A DNA stretch of 62,434 nt, the filler included, from an uncultured bacterium (GTDB lineage Bacteria > DAOPZR01), in the NCBI GenBank assembly GCA_964637655.1. It is 11 parts of 11 records of this genome, joined end to end, with 100 filler letters (N's around TTAATTAATTAA, not from the genome) between each part and the next. Parts side by side here need not be neighbours in the genome. Positions count along the whole stretch, not along the records: positions 5,850 to 11,579 come from CAZWUZ010000248.1; 10 more parts are not named here. One strand, given 5' to 3'. The number at the start of each line of letters is the position of its first letter. Position 1 is the stretch's first letter. Both the position numbers and the translations under genes were made by a program. Below the pieces are notes generated by a model. The model was not told where the DNA came from, did not search any database, and was given only the letters and a program-made list of their open reading frames with translations. Positions 4,309 through 57,484 of the stretch are shown piece after piece.

Positions 4309-4324
4309 ATGCACGTGAAACGGT

Positions 4325-4352
4325 ATTATACACTACCTGCCGCCAAAAGCAA
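4325..4352 (-). promoter_or_regulatory. Putative sigma70 promoter of the sigma factor operon
   Basis: TTGCTT-16 nt-TATAAT on the minus strand. Confidence 0.5.
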
Positions 4353-4382
4353 GGAAACCGCACCCCGCTGCGCCTGCGGCTG

Positions 4383-4411
4383 TTGACGCTGCCACCCGCG
4401 ACAGTCATAAT
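4383..4411 (+). promoter_or_regulatory. Putative sigma70 promoter, near-leaderless transcript
   Basis: TTGACG-17-CATAAT, 9 nt before ATG 4421, no SD. Confidence 0.6.
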
Positions 4412-4420
4412 GGCACCGCT

Positions 4421-5749
4421 ATGCGCCTGACCCTGCTCAACCCGCCGCCGCGGCGCCGGGTCGAACTCTATGACCGGCCCAACTACCCGCCGCTGTCGCT
4501 GGCCTACCTCGCGGGGAGTGCGCGCGCGGCCGGGCACGACGTCGCCATCGTCGATGCCAAGTACGAGCCGCTGTCGCTGACCGAAACCGTGCGGCGCGTG
4601 CTCGCGCAGTCGCCGCAGGTCGTCGGCATCACCGCGATGACCCATGAAATCGCCCGCGCCGCCGAGGTAGCCGCCGCGCTCAAGCAGGCTCAGCCGGCAC
4701 TGGTCACCGTGGTTGGCGGGGTGCATGCCACCTATCTTGCGCGCGAGACCCTGCAGGAATTTCCCGCGTTTGATCTTGCGGTCATCGGTGAAGGCGAGGA
4801 AACCCTCGTACGCCTGCTCGGCGCGCTGGCCCGGGGCGAAGACCGTGCGCTGGTGCCGAACCTCGCCCTGCGCCGCGACGACAATATCCTGCTCACCCCG
4901 TCTGCCCCGCCACCACCTGACCTCGACGCGCTCGCCCCGCCCGCCTTCGATCTCTGGCCGCGTCTCCCCGTCTACCATCTCAATACCGCGCGCGGCTGCC
5001 CCTACCGTTGCATTTTCTGTGCGCAGGCCCACGGGCGTTCCCTGCGCATGCACTCCGCGGAACGTGTGGCGGAGATGTTCGGGTCGCTGGTCGATGCCTT
5101 CCGGCCGCAACGCATCTACCTCGTCGATGAGACCTTCGGACTCGACCGCGAGCGCGCCTACCGCATCCTGCAGTTGTTCCGCCAGCGGCATCTCGGGGAA
5201 CGCTGCCCGTGGTGGGCCGCCACCCGGGTCGACCGCGCCGAGTACGAGTTCCTCAAGGCGCTGAAGGATGCCGGCTGTTTTCTCATCCAGTTCGGCATTG
5301 AATCAGGCAGCGAGCGCGTGCTGCGAACCCTCGGCAAGCAGATCAGCAAAGACGCGGTGCGGGCCGCCGTGGCCGATGCGCGCCGCGCCGGGCTCAAGGT
5401 CGAAGGGCTCTTCATCGTCGGGCATCCGCACGAGACCCCCGCTGAAATCGACGAGACGCTGGCATTCATCAACGAACTCAATCCCGACCTGCTCGCCCTC
5501 GGGATCATGGTCCCCTACCCCGGCACGGAACTGGCCGCGATGATCGCCCGCGGCGAAGGGGGCTACCGCCTGCTCGACCGCAGCTGGGAGGCGTTCAACA
5601 AGCAGCTGGGGAAAGCGCTGGAACTGGAAACCGTGTCACGCCGTGAACTCGAACTCGCGCAGTTGCGCGGTTATCTCGGGCTCTACCTGCGCCACGGGCG
5701 GCTGGTGGACCTGTGCCGGTTCACCCTGGGCAACTGGCGCGGGGCCCTC
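4421..5749 (+). CDS. B12-binding radical SAM protein (3' truncated)
   Basis: PPLSLAYLA, GGVHAT, GEGEET, RGCPYRCIFC, GIESG, PYPGT. Confidence 0.92.
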
Positions 5750-5849
5750 NNNNNNNNNNNNNNNNNNNNNNNNNNNNNNNNNNNNNNNNNNNNTTAATTA
5801 ATTAANNNNNNNNNNNNNNNNNNNNNNNNNNNNNNNNNNNNNNNNNNNN
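5750..5849. other. Artificial contig spacer (also 11580-11679, 17398-17497, 23174-23273, 28826-28925, 34471-34570, 40091-40190, 45694-45793, 51286-51385, 56864-56963)
   Basis: N44-TTAATTAATTAA-N44, with stops in all frames. Confidence 0.99.
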
Positions 5850-6193
5850 ACGAGTACTAACAGAAACCAGCGGATTTGCAGCAGCCAGCAGGCGCCCAGC
5901 CGGCGATAGACCGGCGCGATGCCACCCGCCAGCAGCGGGTGGCTTACCGGCCCGGCCACGGCATAGGCGAAATCAGCGTGATGGTAGAGACGGCGGCCGC
6001 CGGTAGGGCGGCGCACGCAGGCCGCAGGAACATTTTTTTCGTAGGCGCCGGCGGTCACCGCGGCAGGCATGAAGGAATAGCAGCGGCCGCACAGCGTCGC
6101 GTCACCCGTCTCCGCCGCGGCAAAGAGTGCCGCGTCGCGCTGCATGTGTGCGGCAGCGTCACCCGCCCCGTCGTCGGTAAACTGCACGTTCAC
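5850..6193 (-). CDS. Lipoate-protein ligase/octanoyltransferase (LplA/LipM)-like protein, truncated
   Basis: GTG overlaps the upstream stop; GDAAAHMQRDAAL and RRPTGGRRLYH..DFAYAV match the BPL/LplA N-terminal motifs. Confidence 0.8.
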
Positions 6194-7569
6194 CGCGCGA
6201 GATGCGCCCGGTAATCCGCCAGCCACAGCTGCGTGAACTTCGCCTCGCTGAGCTGGAACTCGCGGCTGACCAGTTCGGCGGCAGGCACGCCTTCGCGGCA
6301 CTTGTGCAGCAGGCGGTTGATGCTGAAAAAACCGTTGCGGCGGATGATGCTGGCGACCATGGCGTACGACTGTTCGTAGGCGAGCACCGCGGTGGCATCG
6401 TCCATGGCGAGGAACGACCCCTGCAGCTGCGCGAGGGTGAGCAAACGGTTCTCCGCAATGGCCGCCGGCAACTGGCGGAAGACGGGAAGCCCGGCACCGC
6501 GGAATTCCTGCCATTGCGCGAGCCCCTCGTTGAGCCAGGTCGGACAGTTGCCGCCGGTGGCGTCATGCACCAGCGCATGGGTGAACTCGTGGCGCAGTAT
6601 CGCCTTGAGGCGCTCGCGGTCGCCGAACAGGTTCTCCGCCGGCACGCGGATTTTGCCGTCGTAAATGGCCCCGGTCCAGTGCGGGGTCCCGGTCAGCCGC
6701 CGGTAATCCTCCGCCTCGTAGATGAGCACGGCCAGGCGGTGGTCGGGGTAGCGGGCGAGTTCGTCCCCGATGACGAAATAGGCCTCCTCGAGCGCCTGCA
6801 GCACGTCGTAGGCGTCGTAGCGGCGCTGCTCGCCGGCGAAGCGGATCTCGAAATGCGGCGACGAGAGGTCGGCCAGCGCCCCCTCCACCTGCTGCTCGCG
6901 CTCCGCCTGCGCGATCAGATCGCGCACCTGCGCCAGCGCGGGCTGCAGCGCCAGCGCCCGCCGCCAGTGGGCGAGCGCGGTCGTCATGTCCTGCTCGCTG
7001 TAATGGATGTAGCCGAGCGTGACCAGCGCGTTGACATTCCCCGTGTCGAGCGTCAGCGCGCGGGCCAGCAGTTCGCGCGCGTCGCGGAAACGGCGCTCGT
7101 CGAACGCGGCGCGGCCCTGCTGCGCGAGCACGGCGGACGCGTTGCGCCGCACGCTGCTGTTCCCCGGGTCGGTCTGCGACGCCTTCTCGAACCAGGCAAG
7201 CGCCTCCGTTGCCTGGCCCGCCTCCGCCAGCGTGACGCCGCGGCGGTTGTAGAGCGCGGCAAGGTTGCGCACCAGCTGCGCATTGTCGGGGCGCAGCGCG
7301 TAGGCCTGTTGCAGCAGCAGCAAGGCCTGGTCGGGCTCACTCTCCGCGAGCGCCAGTCCGTAATTGTTGCACGCGGCAGCAAGCGCCTCCTCGATGGCCG
7401 GGTCGCCGGGCGCATAGTTCTGCGCGGTCTGCAGGGCGACCAGCGCCCCCTCGTAATCGCCGGCCGTCAGCGCCGCCTGCCCGCGCTGCAGGAAGTAGGC
7501 CGCTTCCCCTTCCGCCGCGGCCGGCACCACCGCCAGCGCGAGCAGCAGCAGCAGCGCGATGGGCTTCAC
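6190..7569 (-). CDS. Secreted TPR + MA-clan metallopeptidase
   Basis: Signal peptide, about 6 TPRs, HEFTH...PTWLNEGLAQW zinc motif. Confidence 0.85.
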   Translation of the reverse strand: MKPIALLLLLALAVVPAAAEGEAAYFLQRGQAALTAGDYEGALVALQTAQNYAPGDPAIEEALAAACNNYGLALAESEPDQALLLLQQAYALRPDNAQLVRNLAALYNRRGVTLAEAGQATEALAWFEKASQTDPGNSSVRRNASAVLAQQGRAAFDERRFRDARELLARALTLDTGNVNALVTLGYIHYSEQDMTTALAHWRRALALQPALAQVRDLIAQAEREQQVEGALADLSSPHFEIRFAGEQRRYDAYDVLQALEEAYFVIGDELARYPDHRLAVLIYEAEDYRRLTGTPHWTGAIYDGKIRVPAENLFGDRERLKAILRHEFTHALVHDATGGNCPTWLNEGLAQWQEFRGAGLPVFRQLPAAIAENRLLTLAQLQGSFLAMDDATAVLAYEQSYAMVASIIRRNGFFSINRLLHKCREGVPAAELVSREFQLSEAKFTQLWLADYRAHLAR

Positions 7570-8288
7570 AGCAGTGCCTCCGCCTGCTGCAGGCGTTCAC
7601 CATCGCTGCGCGTCACATCCCAGCCGGCGCGCGACCAGCCAAGGTCATCGGTCATCCCCGCCAGATAGGTGGCGTAATGCTCCGTCGGGCGGAACCCGCC
7701 CCAGTCGGCGCACGCGGGGAAGCGTTCCCGCACTTCGCCGGCAAGGCGCCGCACCGCTTCGGGCGAGGCGGGCCCGTAGTTGTCCCCGAAATGCAGCGCC
7801 AGGCGCAGCCCCTGCATGCCGGCCAGCGTGCAGAGTTCGTCGAGCAGGCGGAAATCGGGGGCGAGATCGCCGTCACGGCGTCCCGCCCAGAGTTTCGGGA
7901 TGACCCGCGTGTGCGGACCGAGCAGCGCGAACGTGCGCGCGAAACGTTCGAAGGAGGCGTCGGGCACTTCGCCCGTGGCCGCGACATCGACAAGCAGGCA
8001 GTCAACCACCTTCGCCAGCGCGATCAGTTCCGCCTCAGGGGCAGCAGGCACGTAGGCGGCCGCGCGCGTCGCCACCGGCAGCGTCGCGAGCCACGCCGTC
8101 AGTTCCGCCAGCGTCGCGGCATCCGCCGCCGCGAGCACGCCTGCCGGGGCGCCGCGCAGGCGCGCCAGTCGCCGCGCATCGGCGAATTCGGTGCAGGTGA
8201 AAAGGCGCGGCAGCGGGGTCAGCGGCTCACCCGCGCGCACCGCCAGCCAGAGCGGCGGCTTCTTCGCTTTAGGCGCAGGCGCTTTCAT
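7566..8288 (-). CDS. Hypothetical protein (possibly a degenerate alpha/beta barrel)
   Basis: Overlaps both neighbours and has a GC3-rich frame; no motif recognised. Confidence 0.55.
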   Translation of the reverse strand: MKAPAPKAKKPPLWLAVRAGEPLTPLPRLFTCTEFADARRLARLRGAPAGVLAAADAATLAELTAWLATLPVATRAAAYVPAAPEAELIALAKVVDCLLVDVAATGEVPDASFERFARTFALLGPHTRVIPKLWAGRRDGDLAPDFRLLDELCTLAGMQGLRLALHFGDNYGPASPEAVRRLAGEVRERFPACADWGGFRPTEHYATYLAGMTDDLGWSRAGWDVTRSDGERLQQAEALL

Positions 8289-8595
8289 AGGCCTTCGCGC
8301 TCCAGAGGTCGTTCCAGTCGCCGGCAGCGTCGGGCTGCACCGTTACCCACCAGTCGCCCGCCGCGTCGCCGCTGGCCAGCACCGTGCCGCTGACCGGCGC
8401 GGGCAGGTCGGTCTGCGCCCGCGCGCCAGTGATGATGGCGAAGCGCGCCCCGCGCTGCACGCGCGCGCCCGGGCCGGGAAGTTCCGCCTGCCACGGTTCG
8501 CCAAGCAGCACGCGCAGGCGCGGGGCCGGCATCAGGCGCAGCGTTCCGTCAGTCGCGCGGCGGCAGCGCAGATGCGCGCGGGAATAGCGTTCCAT
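8269..8595 (-). CDS. Glycine cleavage H-like protein with Arg at the lipoyl-Lys position
   Basis: GcvH-like RYSRAH, LGE...ELP.PG..V..G..F, DLPAPVSGTV and L.SA.AY; the ESVKA motif reads TGARA. TGATG coupling to the upstream gene. Confidence 0.65.
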   Translation of the reverse strand: MERYSRAHLRCRRATDGTLRLMPAPRLRVLLGEPWQAELPGPGARVQRGARFAIITGARAQTDLPAPVSGTVLASGDAAGDWWVTVQPDAAGDWNDLWSAKAYESACA

Positions 8596-9077
8596 CAGAG
8601 GCGGTAGCGGCGGCGCAGTTCCGGCAGGCGCGCCGCGAGTTGTTCGATGAGGGCGATCAGTTCGTCGAGTGTTCCCTGGTAGACCGCCGCGCCGCGCCCG
8701 AACGGATCGTCGACATCGCCCGGCTGCTCCGCCGCCGCTTCGCGCAGCGTCAGCGCCGGCCGCGCCCCGCCAAACCGCTGCACAATGCTCTCGCGGTGGC
8801 GGTCCTCCATGGTCAGCAGGAGGTCGGCGCTGTCGTAGAGGGCAGCGGTGAACCGGCGGCTGCGATGCGCACGGATCCGGTCGGCAGCAGCGGCAAAGCG
8901 CGGGTCGCGCGCCGCCAATTCGGTAAGTGCAGCGATAGCATCCGGCATGGCCGCGTCGCCGTCATCGGCACCGATGCCCGCAGAACTGACTGTCAGGTCA
9001 GGGAGCAGCGCGAGGGCCAGCGCTTCGGCCATGGGGCTGCGGCAGGTGTTGCCGGTACAGATAAACATGATGTGCAT
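8595..9077 (-). CDS. Low-molecular-weight phosphatase, YwlE (protein-arginine phosphatase) type
   Basis: P-loop CTGNTCRSPMAE, DLLLTM, DVDDPFG; strong RBS. Confidence 0.85.
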   Translation of the reverse strand: MHIMFICTGNTCRSPMAEALALALLPDLTVSSAGIGADDGDAAMPDAIAALTELAARDPRFAAAADRIRAHRSRRFTAALYDSADLLLTMEDRHRESIVQRFGGARPALTLREAAAEQPGDVDDPFGRGAAVYQGTLDELIALIEQLAARLPELRRRYRL

Positions 9078-9106
9078 ACCGGTTTCCCCCTCCCGCGAGC
9101 ACAATC

Positions 9107-9135
9107 AGTATAGACGGCAGATCTGCCGCTGTCAA
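9107..9135 (-). promoter_or_regulatory. Sigma70 promoter of the phosphatase operon with a palindromic spacer
   Basis: TTGACA-17-TATACT; the spacer holds the palindrome CGGCAGATCTGCCG. Confidence 0.7.
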
Positions 9136-9299
9136 CAGTGGGCGCAGCCCGGTCAGGAGGTTGGGCAGGAGCACAGCTACGGTATGCGACGCCGGCCGGC
9201 CGTGCACAGCGTGTGTACGCATGCGCGGCCGGATGATCGTAGTGCACGACTCCGGTGGCGGGCGGGGGGAGCGGATGACGTCGGGTTTGCCGGGCGTAC

Positions 9300-9336
9300 A
9301 AAAAAAGAAGCGCTGTCGCGTGAGCGACAGCGCTTC
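9300..9336 (-). terminator. Rho-independent terminator of the cold-shock gene
   Basis: 13-bp stem GAAGCGCTGTCGC/GCGACAGCGCTTC, 4-nt loop, U7 tail. Confidence 0.9.
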
Positions 9337-9352
9337 GTGAGAGCGGGTTGCC

Positions 9353-9553
9353 TTACGCAGGCATCACATTCTCGGCGGCCAGCCCCTTCGGACCGTCCTT
9401 GATCTCAAAGCTAACCTTCTGACCCTCTTTCAGGGTCTTGAAGCCGTCAACCTTGATCGCCGTAAAATGCACGAACACATCCGGGCCATTGTCCTGGGTG
9501 ATAAACCCAAAGCCCTTCTGCTCGTTGAACCACTTAACTGTGCCTTCTGCCAT
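9353..9553 (-). CDS. cspA: Cold-shock protein
   Basis: [32 protein letters not shown]. Confidence 0.97.
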
Positions 9554-9670
9554 TGTTCTCGCCTCCTTTCCCGCTACTTCCGGTTGGAGGTAAGAACGTG
9601 GTACTGACGAATGCTCATCAAACACCCTACTTACCTGCCATTGCTGCAGGGCTAAAAGCCCATTGCGATA

Positions 9671-9699
9671 ATCTTACCATAGAATTTCAAGTTTGTCAA
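9671..9699 (-). promoter_or_regulatory. Sigma70 promoter of cspA (about 110-nt 5' UTR)
   Basis: TTGACA-17-TAAGAT. Confidence 0.75.
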
Positions 9700-9766
9700 G
9701 GGTTTTTGTTTCCTGTATTGTCACAGCGTCCGGGTGATACCATTCAATATTCTGCAGGAAAACAAG

Positions 9767-10972
9767 TTATAGCTGTTCTGAGACAGGGATTCTTTTGGCT
9801 AAATCGGCCTTTGCCTCGGCTCCGCGCCGCCCGATGGCGGCATACCAGTCGAAGAAATGCAGCGCTTCAGCCATGGTGCGCCGCCGGGCGAGTTTGCCGA
9901 AACTGCCGGCGCGCCGCACCCCGACGAGGCGCGTCTGCAGCAGCAGGATGTCACGCGCCGCACCGCGCGCCGCCTTGGTCACCGGCAGGAACTCGACCCG
10001 CGCGGGCAAGGAATTCTGGATTTCATCAGCCACGCGCTGCGGCTGCACGTCCCAGTAGAACTCGTCGATGGTCACCTGCAGGCGGCGCAGCAGGCAGGGA
10101 AGGAGCCAGAGCGCCCAGGCGAGTCCCTCGCTGACCGGTTCGGTCACCGCGTCGGTATAGGCGAACGCGGCGCGCTGCAGCGGCGCGTAGCGCGTATCCG
10201 CCAGCGTTTCTGACCACGGCGGGAAAAGCTGCGTGAGCAGTCCCAGTTCCTGCGCCAGCAGCAGCGAGCGTTCCGCCGCGCGGTAGTTGAGCAGCACCCC
10301 CGCCTCTTCGAGCAGGCGCGCCTTCGAGACGGGGGCAAGCATTCCCGCCTGCGCCACGATGGCGGCGCGCAGGTGCGGGTCGAGGGTGAACTGGTGGCGC
10401 CCGGCCAGGCGCACCGCGCGCAGCATGCGCACCGGGTCCTCGGTGAGCGAGGCGACCGGGTCGACCACCGTCCGCACCCGCTTCTTCTGCAGGTCGGCAT
10501 AGCCGCCGACGTAGTCGAGCACCTGCCGCTTGTTCAGGTCGTAGAACATCGCGTTGACGGAAAAATCACGGCGGAAGGCGTCGTCGCGCGGCGTCCCGTA
10601 GACGCGTTTCGCCTTCCCGCGCGCCTCACCCTCCTCCGGTTCGAGGATGCTGTCCGCCTCCTTGCGGAAGGTCGCCACCTCGACATTGTCATCCTGCCCG
10701 TAGCGCAGGTGGACGAGGCGGAAACGACGCCCGATGACGAAGGCGTTGCGGAACATCCGCTTGATCTGGTTGGGCGTGGCGTCCGACACGAGGTCGAAGT
10801 CCTTCGGCTGCTTGTTCAGCAGCAGGTCGCGCACGGCGCCCCCGACCAGGTACGCGGCATAGTGCTGGCGCTGCATGGTGCGCGCGATCTGCCAGATGCG
10901 CTGCTCAATGCCCGCGGGATCGATCTTGTGGTCCTGCTGGTGCAGTACGACCAGCCCTTCATTCCTGTCCAT
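9767..10972 (-). CDS. pcnB: Poly(A) polymerase
   Basis: LVGGAVRDLL, KDFD, PAP signature VIGRRFRLVHL, RRDFSVN, EDPVRMLR. Start 10972 is preferred because ATG 10984 overlaps a -10 box (TTGACG-16-TACAAT, 10983-11010). Confidence 0.88.
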   Translation of the reverse strand: MDRNEGLVVLHQQDHKIDPAGIEQRIWQIARTMQRQHYAAYLVGGAVRDLLLNKQPKDFDLVSDATPNQIKRMFRNAFVIGRRFRLVHLRYGQDDNVEVATFRKEADSILEPEEGEARGKAKRVYGTPRDDAFRRDFSVNAMFYDLNKRQVLDYVGGYADLQKKRVRTVVDPVASLTEDPVRMLRAVRLAGRHQFTLDPHLRAAIVAQAGMLAPVSKARLLEEAGVLLNYRAAERSLLLAQELGLLTQLFPPWSETLADTRYAPLQRAAFAYTDAVTEPVSEGLAWALWLLPCLLRRLQVTIDEFYWDVQPQRVADEIQNSLPARVEFLPVTKAARGAARDILLLQTRLVGVRRAGSFGKLARRRTMAEALHFFDWYAAIGRRGAEAKADLAKRIPVSEQL

Positions 10973-11153
10973 AACCGCCTGCATTGTAGTTATTTTTCAC
11001 GCCACGTCAAGCGCGCCCCTCGCTCCCGTCGCTGCGCTCACCACCCCGCACTGCCCCCCTCATATACGCGTACACCTGCGGCGGTATTTCATTTTTGACG
11101 TTCCATACAATTATATGATATGATAGAGCGCGGTGTTCGGACGGGGGGCACGT

Positions 11154-11579
11154 GTGCGCATCGTCCATACAGAGGAATCGTGCGGGTGGGGCGGTCAGGA
11201 GATGCGTGTGCTCCGCGAATGCCTCGGGCTGCGCGAACGCGGGCACGAGGTGGCGCTCGTCTGCCAGCCGCAGGCGGCGCTCGCCCGCCGCGCCGCGGCC
11301 GCCGGCCTCCCCGTCTGGCTGGTGCCGCTCACCGGGCAGGTGAGCATCGCCTCCGCGCTGCGCGTGCACCGCGCCCTTTGCGACCTGCGCCCCGCCATCC
11401 TCCATGCGCACTCCTCCATCGACGGCTGGATGGGCGCGTACCTCAAGCGCGTGCACGGCTACCGGCTCGTGCGCACCCGCCCTATCGAAATGCCCGTGCG
11501 CAACCAGCTCGCCAATCGCGCCTGCGAGCATCGCGGCGAGCGCGCGCGCGAACGCGGACGCATCGATCCAGAACGTGGC
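11154..11579 (+). CDS. Glycosyltransferase family 4, N-terminal part
   Basis: RIVHTE..GWGGQE, GHEV, ILHAHSS. Confidence 0.85.
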
Positions 11580-11679
11580 NNNNNNNNNNNNNNNNNNNNN
11601 NNNNNNNNNNNNNNNNNNNNNNNTTAATTAATTAANNNNNNNNNNNNNNNNNNNNNNNNNNNNNNNNNNNNNNNNNNNN

Positions 11680-12768
11680 ACGGCCCGATCCGGCAGCAGC
11701 GCGCCCAGCGGTGCGTCGGGCGCGATGAAGTCGCTCGCCGCGCGCGCGGCACCCAGCGTGTCGCGCAGCACTGTGGCGAAGGTGCGCGCGCAGGCCTGCT
11801 GCGGCAAGGTGCTGCAGCGCACTTTCCGCCCGGTCGGGCGGGATGGCGAAAAGCAGCCCGCCCGAGGTCTGCGGGTCGAACATGATGTCGCCTGCCTCGC
11901 GCGGAATGGTCTCCAAACCGCGCACCATGCCGCTGCGGAATTCGCGGTTGCGGTAGGTGCCCGCGGGGATGAGTCCCATGCGCGCGTATTCGACCGCGCG
12001 CGGCAGCAGCGGCATGCGCGCGAAGGAGAACTGCAGTCCTGCTGCGGTGTTGCTGACCATCTCCGCGGCGTGGCCGAGCAACCCGAACCCCGTAACATCA
12101 GTGCAGGCGGAGGCGTCATACTCCCGCGCAACCTGCGCTGCCGTACGGTTGAGCGTGGTCATCGCGGTGATCGCGGCAGCGAGCGTGGTTTCGTCCGCCA
12201 ATTCTGCGCGCAGTGCGGCATTGATCAGTCCGGTCCCCAGCGGCTTGGTCAGGATGAGCGTGTCGCCCGGACGCGGGGTATTGTTGCGCAGCGCCTGCTG
12301 CGGATGGATGCGCCCGGTTACTGCCAACCCGAATGTTACCCCTTCGTCCTCAATGCTGTGCCCGCCCACCAGCGCGGTCTGTGCCTCAGCCAGCACGTCA
12401 AGTGCGCCGCGCATCATCGCGCGCAGCACGCTGATTTCCATGGTCGATGCCGGGAAGCAGACGATGGCGAGCGCGGTCAGCGGCGTGCCCCCCATGGCAT
12501 AGACGTCAGAGAGGGCGTTGCAGGCGGCGATTTTGCCGAACAGCAACGGGTCATCGACGATGGGCGGGAAAAAGTCGACCGTCTGCACCAGCGCTGTATC
12601 ATCGTTGAGGCGGAAGATACCGGCATCATCAGAGGTATTGTAGCCGACGATCAGGTCGGGAAAGTGCGGTTGCGTCAGGCCGCACAGCGCCTTGTCCAGC
12701 AAGCCGGGCCCTAATTTCGCGCCACAACCGGAAAACTTCGTGTGCCGGGTCAGCTTGCTGTCAGTCAT
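11680..12768 (-). CDS. selD: Selenide, water dikinase (Cys type; C-terminus runs into the contig end)
   Basis: SGCGAK, DDAG, QTVDFFPP, NALSDVYAMGG, GGHS, TDVTGFGLLGH, DPQTSGGLL. Confidence 0.95.
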
Positions 12769-13885
12769 GGAGCAGTTGCCTGATAACGGAAATGCCGTTA
12801 GTGACATCGTCCGTTGTGGTAGACCAGCCGAAACTCAAGCGTACCGTGCCGTCAGGAAAGGTGCCGAGCGCGCGATGTGCGCCCGGCGCGCAGTGCAGTC
12901 CGCAGCGCACCGCAACTTCTGCCCGGTCGAGCGCGCGGGTGATATCCGCAACGGAATGCCGTGCGTGGGTGAACGAAACGATGCCGTGCGTCTCCGCCGG
13001 ACCGTGGCTGGTGATGCCGGGAATGCCGGCGAGCAGTTCGCGCGCCTGCGCGGTCAGCGTGGCGATATGCGCACTGATGCGCCCGACCCCGGTGGCCATG
13101 ACAAATTGCAGTGCTGCCTGTAATCCCCCAATCCCCACGAGGTTCGGGGTGCCGCTCTCCAACCGGTCCGGGAATTCTTCCGGCTGCTCTTCGGAGGAAG
13201 AATGCGAGCCGGTGCCGCCGCAGATGACCGCTGCGAGGTCTGCTTCCGGCGCGACGTACAGGAGGCCTGTGCCGGTCGGACCAAGCAGCCCCTTATGTCC
13301 CGAGGCACAGAGAAAATCAACGGGGGTTTCCGCTACGGAGAGCGGCAGCGTGCCGAGTGCCTGGGCGGCATCGAGGCAGAAGCGCGCGCCTGCGGCATGC
13401 GCGTCGCGAGCCAGTTCCTGCCACGGGAGCACGGTGCCGGTCACGTTGCTGACCGCGGTGCAGATGACGAGCGTGGGACGCGCGGCGAGCCGGCGTTGCC
13501 AATCATCGCGGTCGATGGTGCCGTCACGGCGCATGACAAAGCGGTCAATCGTGATGCCGTCGCGTTGCGCCCGGCAGTGCAGCGGACGCATCACCGCGTT
13601 ATGTTCCAGCGGTGAAACCAGCACCCGGTCGCCGGGGCGCAAACAACCGAAGATGACCATGTTGAGCGACAGCGTCGTGCCGGAAGTGAAGACCACGCGC
13701 GTGCTGTCCTGCGCGCCAAGCAGTGCTGCCACCAGCTGCCGGGTGGTGTAGAGCAGTTCGCTCGCCGCTATTGACGCGTCATGCGAGGCGCGGTTGGCAT
13801 TGGCCAGACCGAGCGCGCGTACCATCGCGTCCGCTACGCCCGGTGCCTTCGGGAAACTGGTGGCGGCGTGATCGAGATAGATCAT
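12761..13885 (-). CDS. Class V aminotransferase (cysteine desulfurase/selenocysteine lyase family)
   Basis: YLDHAATSFPK, EHNAV, DAAQ, SGHKGL, ESGT, RCGLHCAP. Confidence 0.92.
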   Translation of the reverse strand: MIYLDHAATSFPKAPGVADAMVRALGLANANRASHDASIAASELLYTTRQLVAALLGAQDSTRVVFTSGTTLSLNMVIFGCLRPGDRVLVSPLEHNAVMRPLHCRAQRDGITIDRFVMRRDGTIDRDDWQRRLAARPTLVICTAVSNVTGTVLPWQELARDAHAAGARFCLDAAQALGTLPLSVAETPVDFLCASGHKGLLGPTGTGLLYVAPEADLAAVICGGTGSHSSSEEQPEEFPDRLESGTPNLVGIGGLQAALQFVMATGVGRISAHIATLTAQARELLAGIPGITSHGPAETHGIVSFTHARHSVADITRALDRAEVAVRCGLHCAPGAHRALGTFPDGTVRLSFGWSTTTDDVTNGISVIRQLLHD

Positions 13886-14673
13886 GCGGCACGCTCCCGC
13901 AGCATGAAGCCGCCGGCGAACAGGTCACCGGTGGCGACGCCCGCCACCCGGGGCGAGGCGAGGAGCAGCGTGGCGAGTTCGTTCGCCTGGCGGGACAGCA
14001 GCGGGGTGACAATCTTCGTGATGATGACGAAGAACGGCAGACACTCCGGTATGCGTGCTGCATATCCGTCCGGCGGCAGCAGTGCCGCTGTCACATGCGC
14101 CGTCGTCAGCAGTGTGCCGGGCGCGAGCTGAAACCGCTCCGCGAAGAGAATGCTGCGGTGCACGACATAATCGCCCAGCGGCATCAGCAATGCGTCGGCG
14201 CCGACCACCGCGAAAATCGCGTCGGCCGCCGTGTTGATGACCGGCTCGTGCTCCGCGTGTGCCTTCAGCGGCCGGCCCGCGCTTCCGTCCGCCTCGACGA
14301 TGATGCGGTCGGCCATGCCGGCTAACTGTTCAATCAGCGCCGCGCTGCCGCGCAGTTTCCCGCTGGTCGGTTCCGTGGCTTCTGCGACAGTGACCTGCCG
14401 GTGCTCTGCCAGCGCGGCACGCAGGGTGCCGGCATCCGGTGCCAGCAGCGTGCAGGGGGACTCGCCGGGTGATGGCGGAAAAATGTGCGTAGTGGTGGTG
14501 GTGATGACCGTCTCGCCCCGCGTCACGGCTGCATGTGCCAGCGCATACATGAGCGAGGTCTTGCCGCCGCCCCCGATAAGGTGCGGGCAACGGTACGCGG
14601 TGAGCGCAGCCGGCAGGGTCAAGAGCCCGTCTCCGGCAGGCCGTTCCTTTCCCCGCGCAACGGGGAAAGACAT
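13882..14673 (-). CDS. yqeC: Selenium cofactor biosynthesis protein YqeC
   Basis: GGGGKTS, TTTTHI, VEADGS..PLKA...HEPVI; start uncertain. Confidence 0.9.
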   Translation of the reverse strand: MSFPVARGKERPAGDGLLTLPAALTAYRCPHLIGGGGKTSLMYALAHAAVTRGETVITTTTTHIFPPSPGESPCTLLAPDAGTLRAALAEHRQVTVAEATEPTSGKLRGSAALIEQLAGMADRIIVEADGSAGRPLKAHAEHEPVINTAADAIFAVVGADALLMPLGDYVVHRSILFAERFQLAPGTLLTTAHVTAALLPPDGYAARIPECLPFFVIITKIVTPLLSRQANELATLLLASPRVAGVATGDLFAGGFMLRERAA

Positions 14674-15509
14674 ATACCCTCTCCCGCCCCGGGCGGGAGA
14701 GGACAGGGTGAGGGCGGGACCGCAGCGCTGTGCGCGAGTATTGCTTCGAGTACACCGCCGCTGATGGTGCGCGTCTTGTCAGAGAGCGTGGCACAGTATT
14801 CCTGCCTGCCGCGCGGATCGATATCGCCGAGTTTGGTGCCGGTCGCCACCGCGATACCGCTCTGCAGCAGGCCGCGCAGCATGCCGTCGATGGCGGCAGA
14901 TACTGGCGTCGCATCGACGGTGCCGACCGTATCACCCGCGGCAACCGTCTCCCCGATGGTCCGCTCGCTGCGGAAGATGCCCGCATGCGGGGCGCGGAAA
15001 CAGCGCTGCGCGGTAACCCCGCCAATGGCGCCGGGAATGCCGGTATCCGCCTCCGGCGCGCGGTCGTAGAGTACGCGTCCGAGGTCGTGTCCGCGATTGG
15101 TTTCGATGGCGACATGACAATTATCGCCCGGGACGAAACCGGGGCCGAGGCCGATAACCAGCGGAGCATCGGTGCTGTGTGTGTCGATGTCGCGCTTGAG
15201 CAGCCGCGCGTCGACCAGCACCTCAGGGCGCAGCGTGGTGCGGCAGGCGGCCTCGGGATCGACTAGCACGGGGAGATGCGACCAGTCGAATCCCGCGGGG
15301 AGCGCGGCATAGTGGTGTGCGGTCACCCCTTCCACGGTGATGCTTCCCGCATAGACCGCGGTGGCGAAGGCGACGGTGCGGCGCACCGGCAGCGGCTCCG
15401 GGATTTCGGTCAGCACAACGCGGAAACCGCTGCGGAACAGGCGATGCGCGGTACCCGTGGCGTGTTCCCCGGCCCCGCGGATGAGAATGAGCGGCTTTCT
15501 GTCAGGCAT
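14619..15509 (-). CDS. yqeB: Selenium-dependent molybdenum hydroxylase system protein YqeB (short form)
   Basis: IRGAGEHATG, VRRTVAF, IGLGPGF, ETNRGHDLG, ADTGIPG, KLGDIDPR, SDK..I.GGVLEAI. Confidence 0.92.
   Translation of the reverse strand: MPDRKPLILIRGAGEHATGTAHRLFRSGFRVVLTEIPEPLPVRRTVAFATAVYAGSITVEGVTAHHYAALPAGFDWSHLPVLVDPEAACRTTLRPEVLVDARLLKRDIDTHSTDAPLVIGLGPGFVPGDNCHVAIETNRGHDLGRVLYDRAPEADTGIPGAIGGVTAQRCFRAPHAGIFRSERTIGETVAAGDTVGTVDATPVSAAIDGMLRGLLQSGIAVATGTKLGDIDPRGRQEYCATLSDKTRTISGGVLEAILAHSAAVPPSPCPLPPGAGEGICLSPLRGERNGLPETGS
14647..14715. repeat. CCCTCTCCC/GGGAGAGG palindromic element at the yqeB-yqeC junction
   Basis: Hairpins CTTTCCCCG/CGGGGAAAG and CCTCTCCCGCCC/GGGCGGGAGAGG plus GGGTGAGGG; related copy at 28488-28596. 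Confidence 0.7.
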
Positions 15510-23273: not shown

Positions 23274-23495
23274 CTCGACTACCTGCGGCGCCTGGCGAAC
23301 ATGATTGTGCAGACCTCGCGCTGCGGGCTGGGGCAGGCGGCGCCCAACCCGGTGCTCGGCGCGCTCAACAACTTCAAGGATCTCTACGCGAACCTGGTGT
23401 CGGAGCGCCCGCACGGGCTGCAGCCGACCTTCAACCTGGCGGAAGCGGTGGTCGACGCGGAGCATAACGTCGGCCGCCGGTCGCTGTACGTGTAG
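23274..23495 (+). CDS. hoxF: Bidirectional hydrogenase diaphorase subunit, C-terminus
   Basis: SRCGLGQAAPNPV; position before hoxU. Confidence 0.88.
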   Translation, partial: LDYLRRLANMIVQTSRCGLGQAAPNPVLGALNNFKDLYANLVSERPHGLQPTFNLAEAVVDAEHNVGRRSLYV

Positions 23496-23509
23496 GCGGG
23501 GAGGATACG

Positions 23510-24214
23510 ATGAGCGAACACGTTACCATCACCATTGACGGCAAGGCCATCACCGTGCCGGCGGGGACGACCGTCCTCAAGGCGGCCGAGGCGGCGGGCA
23601 TCTACATCCCGCGTCTCTGCGCCTTCAAGGACCTCGTGCCGCACGGCTCCTGCCGCGTCTGCTCGGTGCGCTGCAACGGGCGCATCCAGGCCTCCTGCGT
23701 GCAGACCGTGGCGGAGGGGATGGTCGTCGAGTACGACACCGCGGAACTCAACGAGTTCCGTAAAAACATCGTCGACATGCTCTTTGTCGAAGGCAACCAC
23801 TTCTGCATGTTCTGCGAGAAGAGCGGCAACTGCGAGCTGCAGGCGCTCGCCTACCGTCTCGGCATTGCCGCGCCGCAGTACCCGTACCAGTTCCCCGACC
23901 GCACGCTCGACATGTCGCATCCCGATGTCTATCTCGACCGCAACCGCTGCATCCTCTGCGGCCGCTGCGTGCGCGTGTCGCAGGAGACGGACAAAAAGAA
24001 CGTCTTCCAGTTCGTCGGGCGCGGCAAGGACAAACGCCTGCAGGTGAATGCCGACTCGCTCGGGGAGACCGACCTCAAGGTGGTCGATGCCGCGGTGCAG
24101 GCCTGCCCGGTGGGGGCGCTGATGCGCAAGCGCGTCGGCTACGCCGTGCCGGTCGGCAAACGGGAATTCGACGCCGCGCCCATCGGCAGCGACATCGAGA
24201 AGGGGGGCAGGTAA
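23510..24214 (+). CDS. hoxU: Bidirectional hydrogenase Fe-S subunit
   Basis: IPRLC, GSCRVC, HFCMFCEKSGNCELQ, CILCGRCVRV, CPVGA. Confidence 0.93.
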   Translation: MSEHVTITIDGKAITVPAGTTVLKAAEAAGIYIPRLCAFKDLVPHGSCRVCSVRCNGRIQASCVQTVAEGMVVEYDTAELNEFRKNIVDMLFVEGNHFCMFCEKSGNCELQALAYRLGIAAPQYPYQFPDRTLDMSHPDVYLDRNRCILCGRCVRVSQETDKKNVFQFVGRGKDKRLQVNADSLGETDLKVVDAAVQACPVGALMRKRVGYAVPVGKREFDAAPIGSDIEKGGR

Positions 24215-24215
24215 C

Positions 24216-24761
24216 ATGAGCAAAGCGCGTATTGCCACGGTGTCGCTCGCCGGCTGTTTCGGCTGTCACATGTCCGTGCTCGACATCGACGACCGTATTC
24301 TCAAGCTGGCGGAACTGGTCGAGTTCGACCGCTCCCCCATCAACGACTACAAGGAGTTCCAGGGACGCTGCGCCGTCGGCCTCATCGAGGGTGGCTGCTG
24401 CAACGAGGAGAATGTCCACGTCCTCGAGGATTTCCGCAAGCATTGCGACCTGCTCATCTCGCTGGGCGACTGCGCTATCAGCGGCGGCATCCCGGCCATG
24501 CGCAACACCGTGCCGCTGCGCGAGTGTTTGCAGACCGCCTACCGCGAGGCGCCGGGCATCTACAACCCGGGGAATATCATCCCCAACGACCCGGAAATCC
24601 CGCTGCTGCTCAACAAGGTCTATCCCTGCCACGAAGTGGTCAAGATCGACCTCTTTTTGCCGGGTTGTCCGCCGCCGGCGGATGCCATCTGGGACACGCT
24701 GGTGGCGCTGCTCACCGGCAAGCCCGTCACGCTGGCCTATGACCGGCTGAAGTACGACTGA
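24216..24761 (+). CDS. hoxY: [NiFe]-hydrogenase small subunit
   Basis: GCFGCHMS, GDCA..GG, PGCPP. Confidence 0.93.
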   Translation: MSKARIATVSLAGCFGCHMSVLDIDDRILKLAELVEFDRSPINDYKEFQGRCAVGLIEGGCCNEENVHVLEDFRKHCDLLISLGDCAISGGIPAMRNTVPLRECLQTAYREAPGIYNPGNIIPNDPEIPLLLNKVYPCHEVVKIDLFLPGCPPPADAIWDTLVALLTGKPVTLAYDRLKYD

Positions 24762-24772
24762 GGAGAACGCAC

Positions 24773-26230
24773 ATGGCGAAGAACTATACCATCCTGCCCG
24801 TCACCCGCGTCGAGGGGCATGGCAAGGTCACCATTCATCTCGACGACCGCAACGAGGTCGAGCAGGTGCGCCTGCACATCGTCGAGTTCCGCGGTTTCGA
24901 GCGCTTCATCCTCGGGCGTCCCTACTGGGAGATTCCCGTCGTGGTGCAGCGCCTCTGCGGCATCTGCCCGGTCAGCCACCACCTCGCGGCGGCCAAGGCG
25001 ATGGACCGCATCGTCGGCGGCGAGAACCTGACCCCGACGGCGGAGAAGATGCGCCGCCTGATGCACTACGGGCAGATGTTCCAGAGTCACGCGCTCCATT
25101 TCTTCCATCTCTCCGCGCCCGATTTTCTCTTCGGTACGGATGCGACGGCGCAGAGCGCGTTCACCGCGCCCGCGGCGCAGCGCAATGTCATCGCGCTGGC
25201 GGGGAAGTTCCCCGACCTGGCGGTGCAGGGCGTGATGATGCGCAAGTACGGGCAGGAAGTCATCAAAGCGACGGCGGGGAAGAAGATCCACGGCACGGGC
25301 GCCATTCCGGGCGGCATCAACAAGAACCTGAGCATCGCCGAGCGTGACGACCTGCGTAAGGAACTCGACCAGATGCTGACCTGGTCGCAGTCCGCGGTGA
25401 AGATCGCCCGCACCTTCACCGAGGAACATCTGCAGGAACTGCTGCCGTTCGGCTCGTTCGACTCCAACCACCTCTCGCTGGTGCGTGAAGGTGACGGGGC
25501 GATGGACCTCTACCACGGTGTGCTGCGCGCTGTCGACAAGGACGGGAAACGTATCGTCAACGATGTCGACTACCAGCGCTACCTGTCGGTGGTCAGCGAA
25601 GAGGTGCGTGCCTGGTCGTACATGAAGTTCCCGTTCATTACCGCCCTCGGGCCGGAGCAGGGGTGGTACCGGGTCGGGCCGCTGGCGCGGCTCAATACCG
25701 CCACCTTCATCGATACCCCGCTGGCCGAGGCGGCGCGCCAGGACTTCATGGCGCTGACCGGGGGGATGCCGAACAACGTCACCATGTGCTACCACTGGGC
25801 GCGCATGATCGAACTGCTGCACAGCATCGAGAAAATCAAAGAACTGCTCTTCGATGCCGACCTGCAGGGGACGGACCTCATGGCCTCCGGGCCGCGGCGC
25901 GAGGAGGGCGTCGGCCTTATCGAGGCGCCGCGCGGCACGCTCTTCCACCATTACCGCGTCAACAAGAACGACGAGGTGACCATGGCCAACCTCATCGTCT
26001 CGACGACCAACAACAACGAGCCGATGAATCGCGCCATCACGAAAGTGGCGAAAGACCACTATACGGGGAAGAACGACCTGTCGGAAGGGCTGCTCAACTG
26101 CATCGAGGTGGCCATCCGCGCCTATGACCCGTGTCTCTCCTGCGCCACGCACGCGCTCGGGCAGATGCCGCTGCTCGTCGAGGTGCACGACGCGGCAGGA
26201 GACGTGGTCACCAGCCGCACCCGCGGATGA
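24773..26230 (+). CDS. hoxH: [NiFe]-hydrogenase large subunit (group 3d-like)
   Basis: TRVEGH, RLCGICPVSH, EAPRG, DPCLSCATH plus a cleavable tail. Confidence 0.95.
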   Translation: MAKNYTILPVTRVEGHGKVTIHLDDRNEVEQVRLHIVEFRGFERFILGRPYWEIPVVVQRLCGICPVSHHLAAAKAMDRIVGGENLTPTAEKMRRLMHYGQMFQSHALHFFHLSAPDFLFGTDATAQSAFTAPAAQRNVIALAGKFPDLAVQGVMMRKYGQEVIKATAGKKIHGTGAIPGGINKNLSIAERDDLRKELDQMLTWSQSAVKIARTFTEEHLQELLPFGSFDSNHLSLVREGDGAMDLYHGVLRAVDKDGKRIVNDVDYQRYLSVVSEEVRAWSYMKFPFITALGPEQGWYRVGPLARLNTATFIDTPLAEAARQDFMALTGGMPNNVTMCYHWARMIELLHSIEKIKELLFDADLQGTDLMASGPRREEGVGLIEAPRGTLFHHYRVNKNDEVTMANLIVSTTNNNEPMNRAITKVAKDHYTGKNDLSEGLLNCIEVAIRAYDPCLSCATHALGQMPLLVEVHDAAGDVVTSRTRG

Positions 26231-28925: not shown

Positions 28926-29112
28926 GACAACGGTCAACGAGCGCGTGCTGGCGGAGGCGCGCGCCGCGCGCGACGAACTGCACGCGGCGCAGCGTGACGT
29001 GTATGCCGGGTTCGTGCGCGAACAGGCGCGCGCGCTCGGCACGGTGACGGCGGAACACGAGACGACGGCCGCGGACGGCACCTACCGCCTCGCGCTGACC
29101 GTGCAGGTCTGA
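28926..29112 (+). CDS. C-terminal fragment of a probable FtsH-ternary-system protein
   Basis: ...RDELHAAQRDVYAGFVREQARALGTV...YRLALTVQV*; the GAGGAGG RBS of the next gene follows its stop. Confidence 0.6.
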
Positions 29113-29122
29113 GGAGGCGCAT

Positions 29123-31222: not shown

Positions 31223-31488
31223 TGGCCGGCGAAGTGCAGATCGAACTGGTGCATAACCCGCATACCGGGCGCATCGACATCATCGTCGATTACCGCTCCC
31301 CGGCCTCGGCAACACAGCGCGAGCACGAGGCGGTGCATCGCCGCATCGTCGCCACCCTGCTCGGCAGCGGCGTGCTGCAGCCCGGGCAGGAGGGCGTGGT
31401 CATCGAGCGCGGCAGCACCCCGGCGGGCGCGGCGGCAGCGCCCGCGGAACAGCCGCAGCAGCCGACCGGACAGCAGCAGGGCCAGTGA
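31222..31488 (+). CDS. Small protein (FtsH-ternary-system-like)
   Basis: TGATG coupling; NPHTGRIDIIVDY...EHEAVHRRIV motif. Confidence 0.7.
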   Translation: MAGEVQIELVHNPHTGRIDIIVDYRSPASATQREHEAVHRRIVATLLGSGVLQPGQEGVVIERGSTPAGAAAAPAEQPQQPTGQQQGQ

Positions 31489-34570: not shown

Positions 34571-35716
34571 CGTTATCGGCGGCGGCAGGGACGTGACGAC
34601 GGTCAGGCGCTCCCCGACGCGGTCACTGTCATCGGCGGCTACCATGCGACCCCGCTGCCGGAGCAGACGCTGCGGGAGTTCCCGTGCTTCAATTATGCGG
34701 TAGCCGGCGAGGGGGAACTGCCGCTGGCCGCACTGCTGGCCGGGACGGCCCCGGCGCAGATACCCGGGCTGGCGTACCGCGATGGCGGGCGCATCGTCGT
34801 CAATCCGCCCGGTCCGGTCATCAGCGAACTCGATACGCTCCCCTTCCCTGCGTTCGACCTGCTTCCCGTCTCGGACTACTACATCCTCACCACGGGGCGC
34901 GGCTGCCCCTTTGCCTGCCCCTTCTGTCTCAATATGCACGGACGGCAGGTGCGCACGCGCGACCCGCACGCCGTGGCGCAGTTTCTCGACGAACTGGTGA
35001 CGCGCTACTGCCCGCGCGAACTGATGTTCGGCAACGAGAATTTTTTCCTTGACGCTGCGCGGCCCGCGCTGCTGCTCACCGAACTTGCCAAGGGGGATTT
35101 TGCGGCGCGCACGCGCTGGCAGGCACAGACCCATGTCGGCACCATCACCCCGGAGTTGCTGATGCTGGCCAAACGCGCCGGCTGCTACAAACTGGCGTTC
35201 GGGGTCGAAACCGGCAGCGACGCGCTGCTTGCAGCGCTCGGCAAGGGACTCGACAAGGAGCGCATCCGCGCGGCAGTGCGCATGACGAAAGCGGCGGGGA
35301 TCGAGGTCGAACTCAATGTCGTGCTCGGCCTGCCGGGCGAAACAGCGCAGTCGCTGCGTGATACCGTCGATTTTCTCGTCGAGCTCAACCCAACGCTCCC
35401 TGCCATCGGCATCATGGTCCCCTACCCGGGCACCGCCGTGGCTGGCATGGCCGCGCGCGGCGAGGGTGGCTACCGCCTGCGCGACGCTCCGTGGTCCGCC
35501 TACAACAAGCAACTGGGCGACGCGCTGGAGTTCACGCATCTTTCGCGCCGCGACCTTGAGCGCTGGCAGCTGCGCGGGTATGTATCCACGTACGTGAAGA
35601 ACGGGCGCTGGCTCGATTTCGCCCGTTTCTGCCTCCGTTACCGCCGCGAGGCGCTCGCCTTCCTGCAGCATCACTTACCTGCTGCCCGCCCCGCACCGTC
35701 TTCCGCTCTACCGTAA
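34571..35716 (+). CDS. B12-binding radical SAM protein (5' truncated)
   Basis: The frame is open from the contig start: GGYHAT, GEGE, RGCPFACPFC, GVETG, PYPGT. Confidence 0.9.
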   Translation, partial: RYRRRQGRDDGQALPDAVTVIGGYHATPLPEQTLREFPCFNYAVAGEGELPLAALLAGTAPAQIPGLAYRDGGRIVVNPPGPVISELDTLPFPAFDLLPVSDYYILTTGRGCPFACPFCLNMHGRQVRTRDPHAVAQFLDELVTRYCPRELMFGNENFFLDAARPALLLTELAKGDFAARTRWQAQTHVGTITPELLMLAKRAGCYKLAFGVETGSDALLAALGKGLDKERIRAAVRMTKAAGIEVELNVVLGLPGETAQSLRDTVDFLVELNPTLPAIGIMVPYPGTAVAGMAARGEGGYRLRDAPWSAYNKQLGDALEFTHLSRRDLERWQLRGYVSTYVKNGRWLDFARFCLRYRREALAFLQHHLPAARPAPSSALP

Positions 35717-57408: not shown

Positions 57409-57484
57409 TACGGGCAGGACAGTACACGCCGGCTGAGCGGCCGGCGGGAACGATATGACGGGATTACAACGGGGAGATGCAGGC

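Follow-up and report, generated by a model that had tools for sequence, protein, structure and literature searches.

H-proteins are textbook lipoyl carriers, and the lysine that receives the lipoyl group is treated as invariant. What, then, does an H-protein relative do when an arginine stands in that place? The question is raised by a five-gene operon on the minus strand of a 62,434-base stretch of DNA from an uncultured bacterium (the whole stretch is referred to here as the window). The operon encodes a YwlE-type phosphatase, a 108-residue H-like protein with Arg59 at the lysine position, an orphan protein (orf240), an exported peptidase with tetratricopeptide repeats (TPR), and the beginning of a LipM/LplA-family protein. 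Our preferred reading, to which we give a probability of roughly 0.4, is that the H-like protein is a neofunctionalized, non-lipoylatable paralogue that acts as a binding partner without a covalent adduct. The features concerned are, in the order of transcription:

9307-9336, minus strand: intrinsic terminator of the upstream cold-shock (csp) gene, a 13-pair stem, 9 of whose pairs are G-C, and then a T run
9107-9135, minus strand: sigma-70-type promoter TTGACA-17-TATACT, with the -35 box at 9135-9130 and the -10 box at 9112-9107
8595-9077, minus strand: YwlE-type low-molecular-weight phosphatase, 160 amino acids (aa), from Pfam LMWPc and PDB matches
8269-8595, minus strand: lysine-less H-protein paralogue, 108 aa, from Pfam GCV_H, the predicted fold and Foldseek
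8416-8430, minus strand: tip motif T56-G57-A58-R59-A60 of the H-like protein, aligned to E-S-V-K-A
8419-8421, minus strand: Arg59 codon CGG, at the lipoyl-lysine position in the HMMER alignment to 3a7a_B
7566-8288, minus strand: orf240, an orphan 240-aa protein of no family
6190-7569, minus strand: exported TPR-repeat zinc metallopeptidase, 459 aa, from Pfam, with the signal and HEFTH seen by eye
5852-6193, minus strand: LipM/LplA-family (BPL_LplA_LipB, PF03099) gene, first 114 codons, cut by the contig end at 5850

The H-like protein scores 23.1 bits against Pfam GCV_H (cut-off 22.2), covering only positions 28-73 of the 122 in the profile, and it lies far below the cut-offs of two NCBIfam models (23.8 against 115.85 for TIGR00527 and 27.5 against 117 for NF002270). 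Among PDB sequences, HMMER matched it to the E. coli H-protein 3a7a_B over residues 3-94 with E = 3.5e-9. The first-pass annotation of this DNA had aligned the protein with H-proteins by eye and read T-G-A-R-A in place of E-S-V-K-A; the HMMER alignments bear this out, Arg59 falling on the lysine of E-S-V-K-A in 3a7a_B. The codon of Arg59, CGG, is two nucleotide changes from AAG. An AlphaFold model was computed with, as input, the H-like protein aligned to 19 of the 31 matches other than itself; those left out are six long multi-stretch proteins and six others that are longer or fused. The predicted local distance difference test (pLDDT) score of the model is 95, and DSSP assigns a turn at residues 57-60 between strands 51-56 and 61-66, which places Arg59 at the tip of the hairpin. 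Foldseek returned 21 PDB matches at E <= 0.001, those listed being nearly all glycine-cleavage H-proteins, and the best TMq values (0.86-0.90) belong to the E. coli, bovine and human proteins. A lipoyl-domain fold with the arginine on the hairpin tip, which had been set as a test of the first-pass proposal, is what the model contains. The P-x-G and A-P-V-S-G frame around the hairpin is retained, Thr56 replaces the conserved Glu at -3 from the modification site, and about 16 residues of the loop after the hairpin are missing relative to canonical H-proteins. By its sequence matches and its predicted structure, the H-like protein is a true H-protein fold that has lost the lipoyl-lysine.

How widespread is this form? 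When 1.84 billion representatives were scanned exhaustively with HMMER, no more than 32 proteins reached E <= 0.001, and a word-index search with the H-like protein alone found only itself. One protein, P0007 (146 aa), is a close relative: it is 43% identical to the H-like protein in pairwise alignment (44-47% by search tools), matches GCV_H over its full length at 69.5 bits, and carries T-G-T-R-A at the tip where the window protein has T-G-A-R-A. The lysine column of a 75-sequence alignment holds K in 67 rows, G in 4, R in 3 and S in 1. Among proteins of at most 181 aa, lysine is present in 67 of 69, and the window protein and P0007 alone lack it; the six remaining rows without lysine are proteins of 223-253 aa with a different architecture. 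A maximum-likelihood tree with 61 rows joins the window protein to P0007 as its sister with support of 97/88; their terminal branches measure about 1.2 changes per site apiece, so that about 2.4 separate the two. The family therefore has two members among the 1.84 billion representatives. Homologues varying at the arginine had been named beforehand as the mark of simple decay; no such variation was seen, the sole close relative also having arginine. A comparison of P0007 with plasmids yielded 37 records; canonical gcvH, 30-37% identical, accounts for all 10 that were listed. Among the papers listed from the open part of the literature (subscription journals were not covered), a natural H-protein with Lys changed to Arg appears in none.

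The two proteins also depart from canonical H-proteins in charge. The net charge is +2 (isoelectric point, pI, 8.8) for the H-like protein and 0 (pI 6.6) for P0007, whereas 59 canonical relatives have a mean of -15, a maximum of -2 and a pI of at most 5.4. Judged from their sequences, both members have lost the acidic surface of canonical H-proteins. Passages of a preprint report that acidic residues of E. coli GcvH touch basic residues of the ligase and that the match of ligase and carrier is determined by surface charge (bioRxiv 10.64898/2026.10.01.755906). Because the lysine, the Glu at -3 and the acidic surface have all been lost, lipoylation of the H-like protein is impossible, and its docking on the usual partners of H-proteins is not expected. 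Since the tip motif and the change of charge are common to both members, they speak more for selection on an altered function than for random decay, in a sample of two sequences.

The system is most like the pair of an H-protein and its ligase. GcvH (PF01597), the carrier of the LipM/LipL relay, has the same fold, the window protein matches the E. coli H-protein in sequence, and the H-like gene lies near a LipM/LplA-family gene. The differences are those listed above: arginine for the lipoyl-lysine, threonine for the Glu at -3, deletion of the loop of about 16 residues, a net charge of +2 against a mean of -15, and a score far below the NCBIfam equivalog cut-offs. The genes of the T, P and L proteins were not seen either. 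For such searches we scanned the contig that carries the operon and 82 of the 156 other candidate reading frames of the window (about 110 codons or more, GC3, that is, third-codon-position G+C, of at least 0.74), together about 62 kb of genome; no gcvT, gcvP, lipA or E2 domain was found on the contig or in these frames. That the contig holds neither gcvT nor gcvP, as had been noticed earlier, is true by Pfam but says little for 5.7 kb. The system thus resembles an H-protein/ligase pair yet lacks the lysine that defines one, and the H-like protein is not GcvH in function.

Why should arginine be the residue that took the place of lysine? The five operon proteins together contain 100 Arg and 14 Lys, with 12 Arg and 1 Lys in the H-like protein, 19 and 0 in the phosphatase, and 13 and 1 in P0007; the G+C content is about 0.60-0.73 across the whole window. 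Because the proteome is Arg-rich, a change from Lys to Arg is expected once lipoylation is dropped, and Arg59 therefore shows that lipoylation was given up, not that an arginine chemistry was gained. An arginine at the tip would keep the positive charge of the lysine, and it would be the residue that an Arg-rich, GC-driven proteome puts where the chemistry of lysine is not required.

The five genes form a real operon. It fills one end of the 5.7-kb contig 5850-11579, coordinate 5850 being the contig end. The terminator of the csp gene marks its 5' boundary, and the promoter lies downstream of that terminator. The promoter agrees with the consensus at 11 of 12 positions and is the top of 5 promoter-like sites in the contig, where 0.6 are expected from shuffled sequences. 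The five minus-strand genes follow without gaps: the phosphatase and H-like genes overlap by 1 nt in TGATG, the H-like gene and orf240 overlap by 20 nt, and both the orf240/peptidase and the peptidase/ligase-like junctions are GTGA. All five show the coding pattern GC3 > GC1 > GC2 (G+C at the three codon positions), with GC3 of 0.76-0.90, and the H-like gene has an intact frame with a GC3 of 0.86. The junctions, the coding GC3 and the promoter score confirm the earlier description of five coupled genes behind one TTGACA-17-TATACT promoter, the title of which leaves out the 240-aa orphan gene, and we conclude that they are read as one transcript from a single promoter. Between the -35 and -10 boxes, the 17-nt spacer of the promoter (9113-9129, minus strand) includes GGCAGATCTGCC, a perfect palindrome of 12 nt; by its sequence it could be a candidate repressor operator.

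The last of the five genes in the operon is the ligase-like fragment. In a protein-atlas feature search it reached 0.92 with 207 of 256 features, and 23 of 30 hits lay in LplA-B_cat clusters. By tblastn it matched a Brevibacillus "biotin/lipoate A/B protein ligase family protein" at E = 5e-4, and pairwise alignment of the two gave 26 identities in 93 positions with VRRPTGGR in common (an R-R-x-T-G-G motif). The Brevibacillus protein itself matches lipoate-ligase and octanoyltransferase models of NCBIfam, its LplA_large match being 4.9e-53 and below the model cut-off. The assignment to the LipM/LplA family is made because of the feature search, the tblastn match and the pairwise alignment; the fragment has no NCBIfam match, and a search of PDB sequences returned only noise. 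The earlier call of a lipoate-ligase-like enzyme thus holds for the family, and what is present of that enzyme is a 114-codon N-terminal fragment below the Pfam cut-off. We also considered whether the fragment is inactive by having G-G-R in place of G-G-G, and rejected this idea on finding that the annotated Brevibacillus member has G-G-R as well. Over the last bases of the contig (5850-5885) the G+C content falls and the tail of the fragment becomes an odd hydrophobic run, which may be an assembly-end artefact.

The gene that overlaps the H-like gene by 20 nt, orf240, belongs to no recognizable family. It has no Pfam, NCBIfam or PADLOC match (PADLOC found nothing for any of the five operon proteins), Pfam searched at E <= 10 with all four members of its family gave nothing consistent, and tblastn against plasmids gave no match. 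Only three relatives, at 90, 53 and 51% identity, were found in a search of 5.8 billion proteins. Its model (pLDDT 58) has about eight alternating beta/alpha units, for which Foldseek found only generic barrels at a TM of about 0.35 and none at E <= 0.001; the protein is perhaps an alternating beta/alpha, barrel-like one, a lead from a predicted model. A protein-atlas search gave scores of 0.91-0.92 but with only 138-140 shared features, a level that the search itself classes as chance-like. Complex prediction for orf240 and the H-like protein gave no verdict, the score being 0.00 in two runs, which had no controls.

Are the H-like gene and orf240 kept together elsewhere? P0007 and P0003, the 53% relative of orf240, are each recorded on exactly one contig, both of source "lgn" and both 4655 bases long, a hint that they share one contig and that the pair has been kept together at about 50% identity. 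Two synteny scans of 185,579 species genomes used only two peptide patterns each, so that distant relatives could be missed: the scan with the orf240 alignment gave 600 pattern stretches, none of them confirmed, and the scan with the H-like pair gave 38 stretches with one confirmed locus and no true relative. That single locus, in Aeromonas, was discarded as a 21-residue chance match within a 421-aa reading frame, which we take to be a glpB-like FAD oxidoreductase.

The first gene of the operon, preceded by a purine-rich ribosome-binding stretch 8 nt ahead of its ATG, encodes a phosphatase that scores 69 bits against Pfam LMWPc (cut-off 23.2, E = 6.5e-19). Its best solved relatives are B. subtilis YwlE (1.2e-23) and a Geobacillus "arginine phosphatase YwlE" (4.7e-21), behind which the solved Wzb-type tyrosine phosphatases trail at about 1e-12; the NCBIfam Wzb model gives 56.5 bits where its cut-off is 243. 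The P-loop C-T-G-N-T-C-R-S is in register with that of YwlE and has Thr, not Ile, at position 5, and the general-acid Asp is present, D-D-P-F of the phosphatase aligning with L-D-P-F of YwlE. According to passages of a published study, position 5 of the P-loop directs specificity, Thr toward phospho-arginine and Ile toward phospho-tyrosine, and Thr-to-Ile changes move YwlE and PtpB toward phospho-tyrosine-type substrates (PMC8001253). The first-pass annotation had taken the Thr in CTGNTCRS as the mark of YwlE; these passages and the YwlE alignment agree with this, and the signature is present. With YwlE, the best PDB match, and S. aureus PtpB, the window protein shares the fold family of protein tyrosine phosphatases of low molecular weight (LMW-PTPs), the C-X5-R P-loop with Thr at position 5, a second Cys in the P-loop, and the Asp-Pro-Phe general-acid motif. 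It differs from YwlE in an insertion of about 11 residues, and its activity on phospho-arginine is predicted from the signature. The setting differs as well: by its genes (an AMIN-domain secretin, high G+C) the organism is no Firmicute, unlike the hosts of YwlE and PtpB, and no McsB, McsA or ClpC was seen on the contig or among the frames scanned.

In the preferred reading, that of a paralogue acting without an adduct, the H-like protein would serve as a pseudo-substrate, adaptor or regulator of the co-encoded LipM/LplA-family protein, which is proposed as the partner because the natural substrate class of that family is the H-protein. Orf240 may be a further partner. The phosphatase would probably be a general phospho-arginine (or phospho-tyrosine) phosphatase that is merely co-transcribed, not a dedicated eraser of Arg59, and the TPR peptidase, which would act in another compartment, is probably just a transcriptional passenger. 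Several points weigh against this reading. The alignment behind the model consists mostly of canonical H-proteins, so that the predicted fold is partly inherited from them, although the sequence matches are independent of it. The ligase-like fragment reaches only 12.2 bits against Pfam BPL_LplA_LipB (cut-off 21, E = 0.17), and the gene is truncated at codon 114, its catalytic half lying beyond the contig end. Binding of the H-like protein to the ligase-family protein and to orf240 is a proposal, and the placing of P0003 and P0007 on the same contig comes from metadata only. The clade has two members, both flagged for unusual composition, which can inflate grouping, and their shared arginine may be mere inheritance. 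Finally, the coupling of an arginine-type phosphatase to a carrier fold with arginine at its modification site is left as a coincidence.

If the genes of the operon had unrelated jobs and were co-transcribed for economy, the partners of the H-like protein would lie elsewhere, the phosphatase would serve envelope or stress signaling, and the peptidase would work in the periplasm. The peptidase lends itself to such a view. As had been noted before, it combines TPR repeats (TPR_2 at 63.7 bits, TPR_19 and others) with a Peptidase_MA_2 domain above its cut-off (1.2e-11, 45.2 bits against 32.4) and an HExxH motif, present as HEFTH; its N-terminus also carries, by eye, a hydrophobic segment resembling a signal, while the remaining products look cytoplasmic. 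No widely conserved cluster was visible in the two genome scans, and the neighbors on the contig are unrelated housekeeping genes. We nevertheless consider such a mixture unlikely, as an H-fold and a LipM/LplA-family protein are a known pairing of substrate and enzyme whose chance co-occurrence among five genes is itself unlikely, and the probable linkage of P0007 and P0003 on one 4655-base contig suggests that the H-like gene and orf240 were kept together. Alternatively, lipoate-dependent metabolism may have been lost, leaving the H-like and ligase-like genes as functionless remnants that are still transcribed within the operon. Loss of the lysine, of the Glu at -3 and of the loop of about 16 residues would fit, as would a Pfam score that barely passes (23.1 against 22.2), the strong divergence of the ligase-like fragment, and the absence of gcvT, gcvP, lipA and E2 genes among the frames scanned. 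A remnant is nonetheless quite improbable: the H-like frame is intact, with a GC3 of 0.86 and a confidently predicted fold, its start codon and those of its neighbors are still coupled, the sister P0007 is intact and full-length and shares the tip motif despite a separation of about 2.4 changes per site, and the charge inversion common to both members looks directional rather than like noise.

The remaining alternatives give the arginine a chemistry of its own. An arginine kinase encoded elsewhere could phosphorylate Arg59 and the co-transcribed phosphatase remove the phosphate again, so that the H-like protein would be a carrier or a switch. In many genomes the YwlE-type enzyme is a general phosphatase present in a single copy, and its adjacency here may be chance; on the other hand, the phosphatase gene is translationally coupled to the H-like gene through TGATG, the arginine occupies the tip that is most exposed and open to enzymes in a side-chain-presenting fold, and the arginine and its T-G-x-R-A frame are retained in the one relative. 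The phosphatase itself, closest to YwlE and with the general-acid Asp of D-P-F, has the Thr at position 5 whose role is described in the passages cited above (PMC8001253). What makes this switch very improbable in our view is that the operon encodes no writer among its genes and that lysine-to-arginine is the default replacement of this proteome. A McsB-type kinase (ATP:guanido phosphotransferase) or McsA was found neither on the contig nor in the 82 frames, weak evidence for about 62 kb of genome, and, among the papers listed from the open literature, subscription journals aside, none joins GcvH with arginine phosphorylation or with LMW-PTPs. Slightly less probable again is the broader proposal that the H-fold was reused as an arginine-modification carrier, with Arg59 phosphorylated or otherwise derivatized, the phosphatase as eraser, and the ligase-like and orphan proteins as reader or writer. 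Least credible of all is a new chemistry in which the LipM/LplA-like protein puts a non-lipoyl acyl or nucleotidyl group on Arg59, to be processed by the phosphatase or the orphan. A carrier fold and a ligase-family gene do share the operon, the ligase-like protein is very divergent from characterized members, and orf240, with its predicted alternating beta/alpha fold, could be an enzyme. However, the guanidinium group is a poor nucleophile for acyl-adenylate chemistry, no precedent is known for a member of the LplA/LipM family acting on arginine, and the catalytic half of the gene lies beyond the contig end.

Three other groups of H-fold proteins can be compared with the window protein. In the GcvH-L/LplA2/SirTM/macrodomain operon of Firmicutes, an H-like carrier is likewise encoded by the side of a ligase-family gene and of enzymes that potentially act on proteins, and Foldseek also matches the S. 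pyogenes GcvH-L (5a35, TMq 0.75). GcvH-L of the SirTM system keeps its lipoyl-lysine and is lipoylated. In the window the lysine is gone, and neither a sirtuin nor a macrodomain was found on the contig or among the 82 frames, so the analogy with this operon drawn in the first-pass annotation does not fit. LbpA, encoded together with sLpl(AB) in sHdr sulfur oxidizers, is a non-acidic H-protein paralogue with a ligase-family gene of its own, as described in passages of PMC10332631; LbpA is lipoylated, and its lysine is strictly conserved according to the preprint cited above (bioRxiv 10.64898/2026.10.01.755906). The window protein has no such lysine, and its contig carries no hdr, lipS1 or lipS2 genes.

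The third group consists of longer GCV_H proteins without the lysine, and it shows that an H-fold of this kind recurs in nature. The six aligned proteins of 223-253 aa have G, R or S in the lysine column in all six cases. P0014, P0019, P0027, P0082 and P0086, the five scanned, match GCV_H. Compared with the window protein, these longer proteins have N-terminal extensions and a different tip motif, and they match it only at E = 3e-5 or weaker. A set of proteins of 215-283 aa (P0014, P0019, P0027, P0082, P0083 and P0085-P0088) has a GCV_H domain and N-terminal extensions, and P0014, P0019 and P0027 look hydrophobic at the N-terminus. Together these 215-283-aa proteins make up a distinct lysine-less H-fold family, so that loss of the lysine is not unique; what is new is the small, basic, stand-alone form with T-G-x-R-A.

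The retained fold, the exchanged lysine, the inverted charge and the coupling to a ligase-family gene together point to a second, non-lipoyl use of the H-fold. As a pseudo-substrate or adaptor, if it is one, the H-like protein would lend itself naturally to studies of how lipoate ligases and transferases recognize their carriers. If instead the arginine is modified, it would represent a new kind of carrier chemistry and the first swinging-arm-type carrier on arginine, as well as a defined substrate of phospho-arginine signaling outside Gram-positive proteostasis; a phospho-arginine switch, if real, would be the first dedicated one outside McsB/ClpC quality control. The ecological weight is small because the family is very rare, and the functional claims draw on sequence and a predicted model.

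The window consists of 11 contigs, each about 5.5-5.7 kb long, with spacers of the form N44-TTAATTAATTAA-N44 between them. Its other features near the operon and between the contigs are:

9353-9553, minus strand: cold-shock (csp) gene, directly upstream of the operon
5750-5849, 11580-11679 and eight more: spacers, across which adjacency is meaningless
41782-41791: a separate N10 run

Besides csp, the contig of the operon carries a poly(A)/CCA polymerase-family gene and a glycosyltransferase gene. The csp gene contrasts with the Arg-rich operon in having 0 Arg and 8 Lys, and its GC1 (0.55) and GC2 (0.33) are much lower. No RNA family of Rfam matched anywhere in the window.

Several gene sets on other contigs are of separate interest. 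At 57437-62434 (plus strand, open at the contig end) lies a secretin of more than 1666 aa with AMIN, Big_1, repeated Secretin_N and Secretin domains; this long AMIN secretin indicates a diderm envelope. A SelD-like AIR-synthase-family gene, a class-V aminotransferase gene (cysteine desulfurase/selenocysteine lyase type) and a YqeC-family gene stand in a row at 11680-14778 (minus strand), a set that suggests handling of a selenium cofactor. A NuoG-like Fe-S subunit, a 20-kDa NuoB-like subunit and a NiFe-hydrogenase large subunit are encoded in a row at 23468-26227, probably as a soluble or energy-converting hydrogenase. The region 29099-34466 holds an AAA+/Peptidase_M41 (FtsH-like) gene and, after it, one whose product exceeds 1000 aa and contains the "FtsH ternary system domain X7" (fvmX7); the pair looks like a predicted conflict or defense system. 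Three B12-binding radical-SAM genes and one SPASM radical-SAM gene are found on different contigs, at 4319-5749, 34571-35713, 52304-53800 and 53772-54932.

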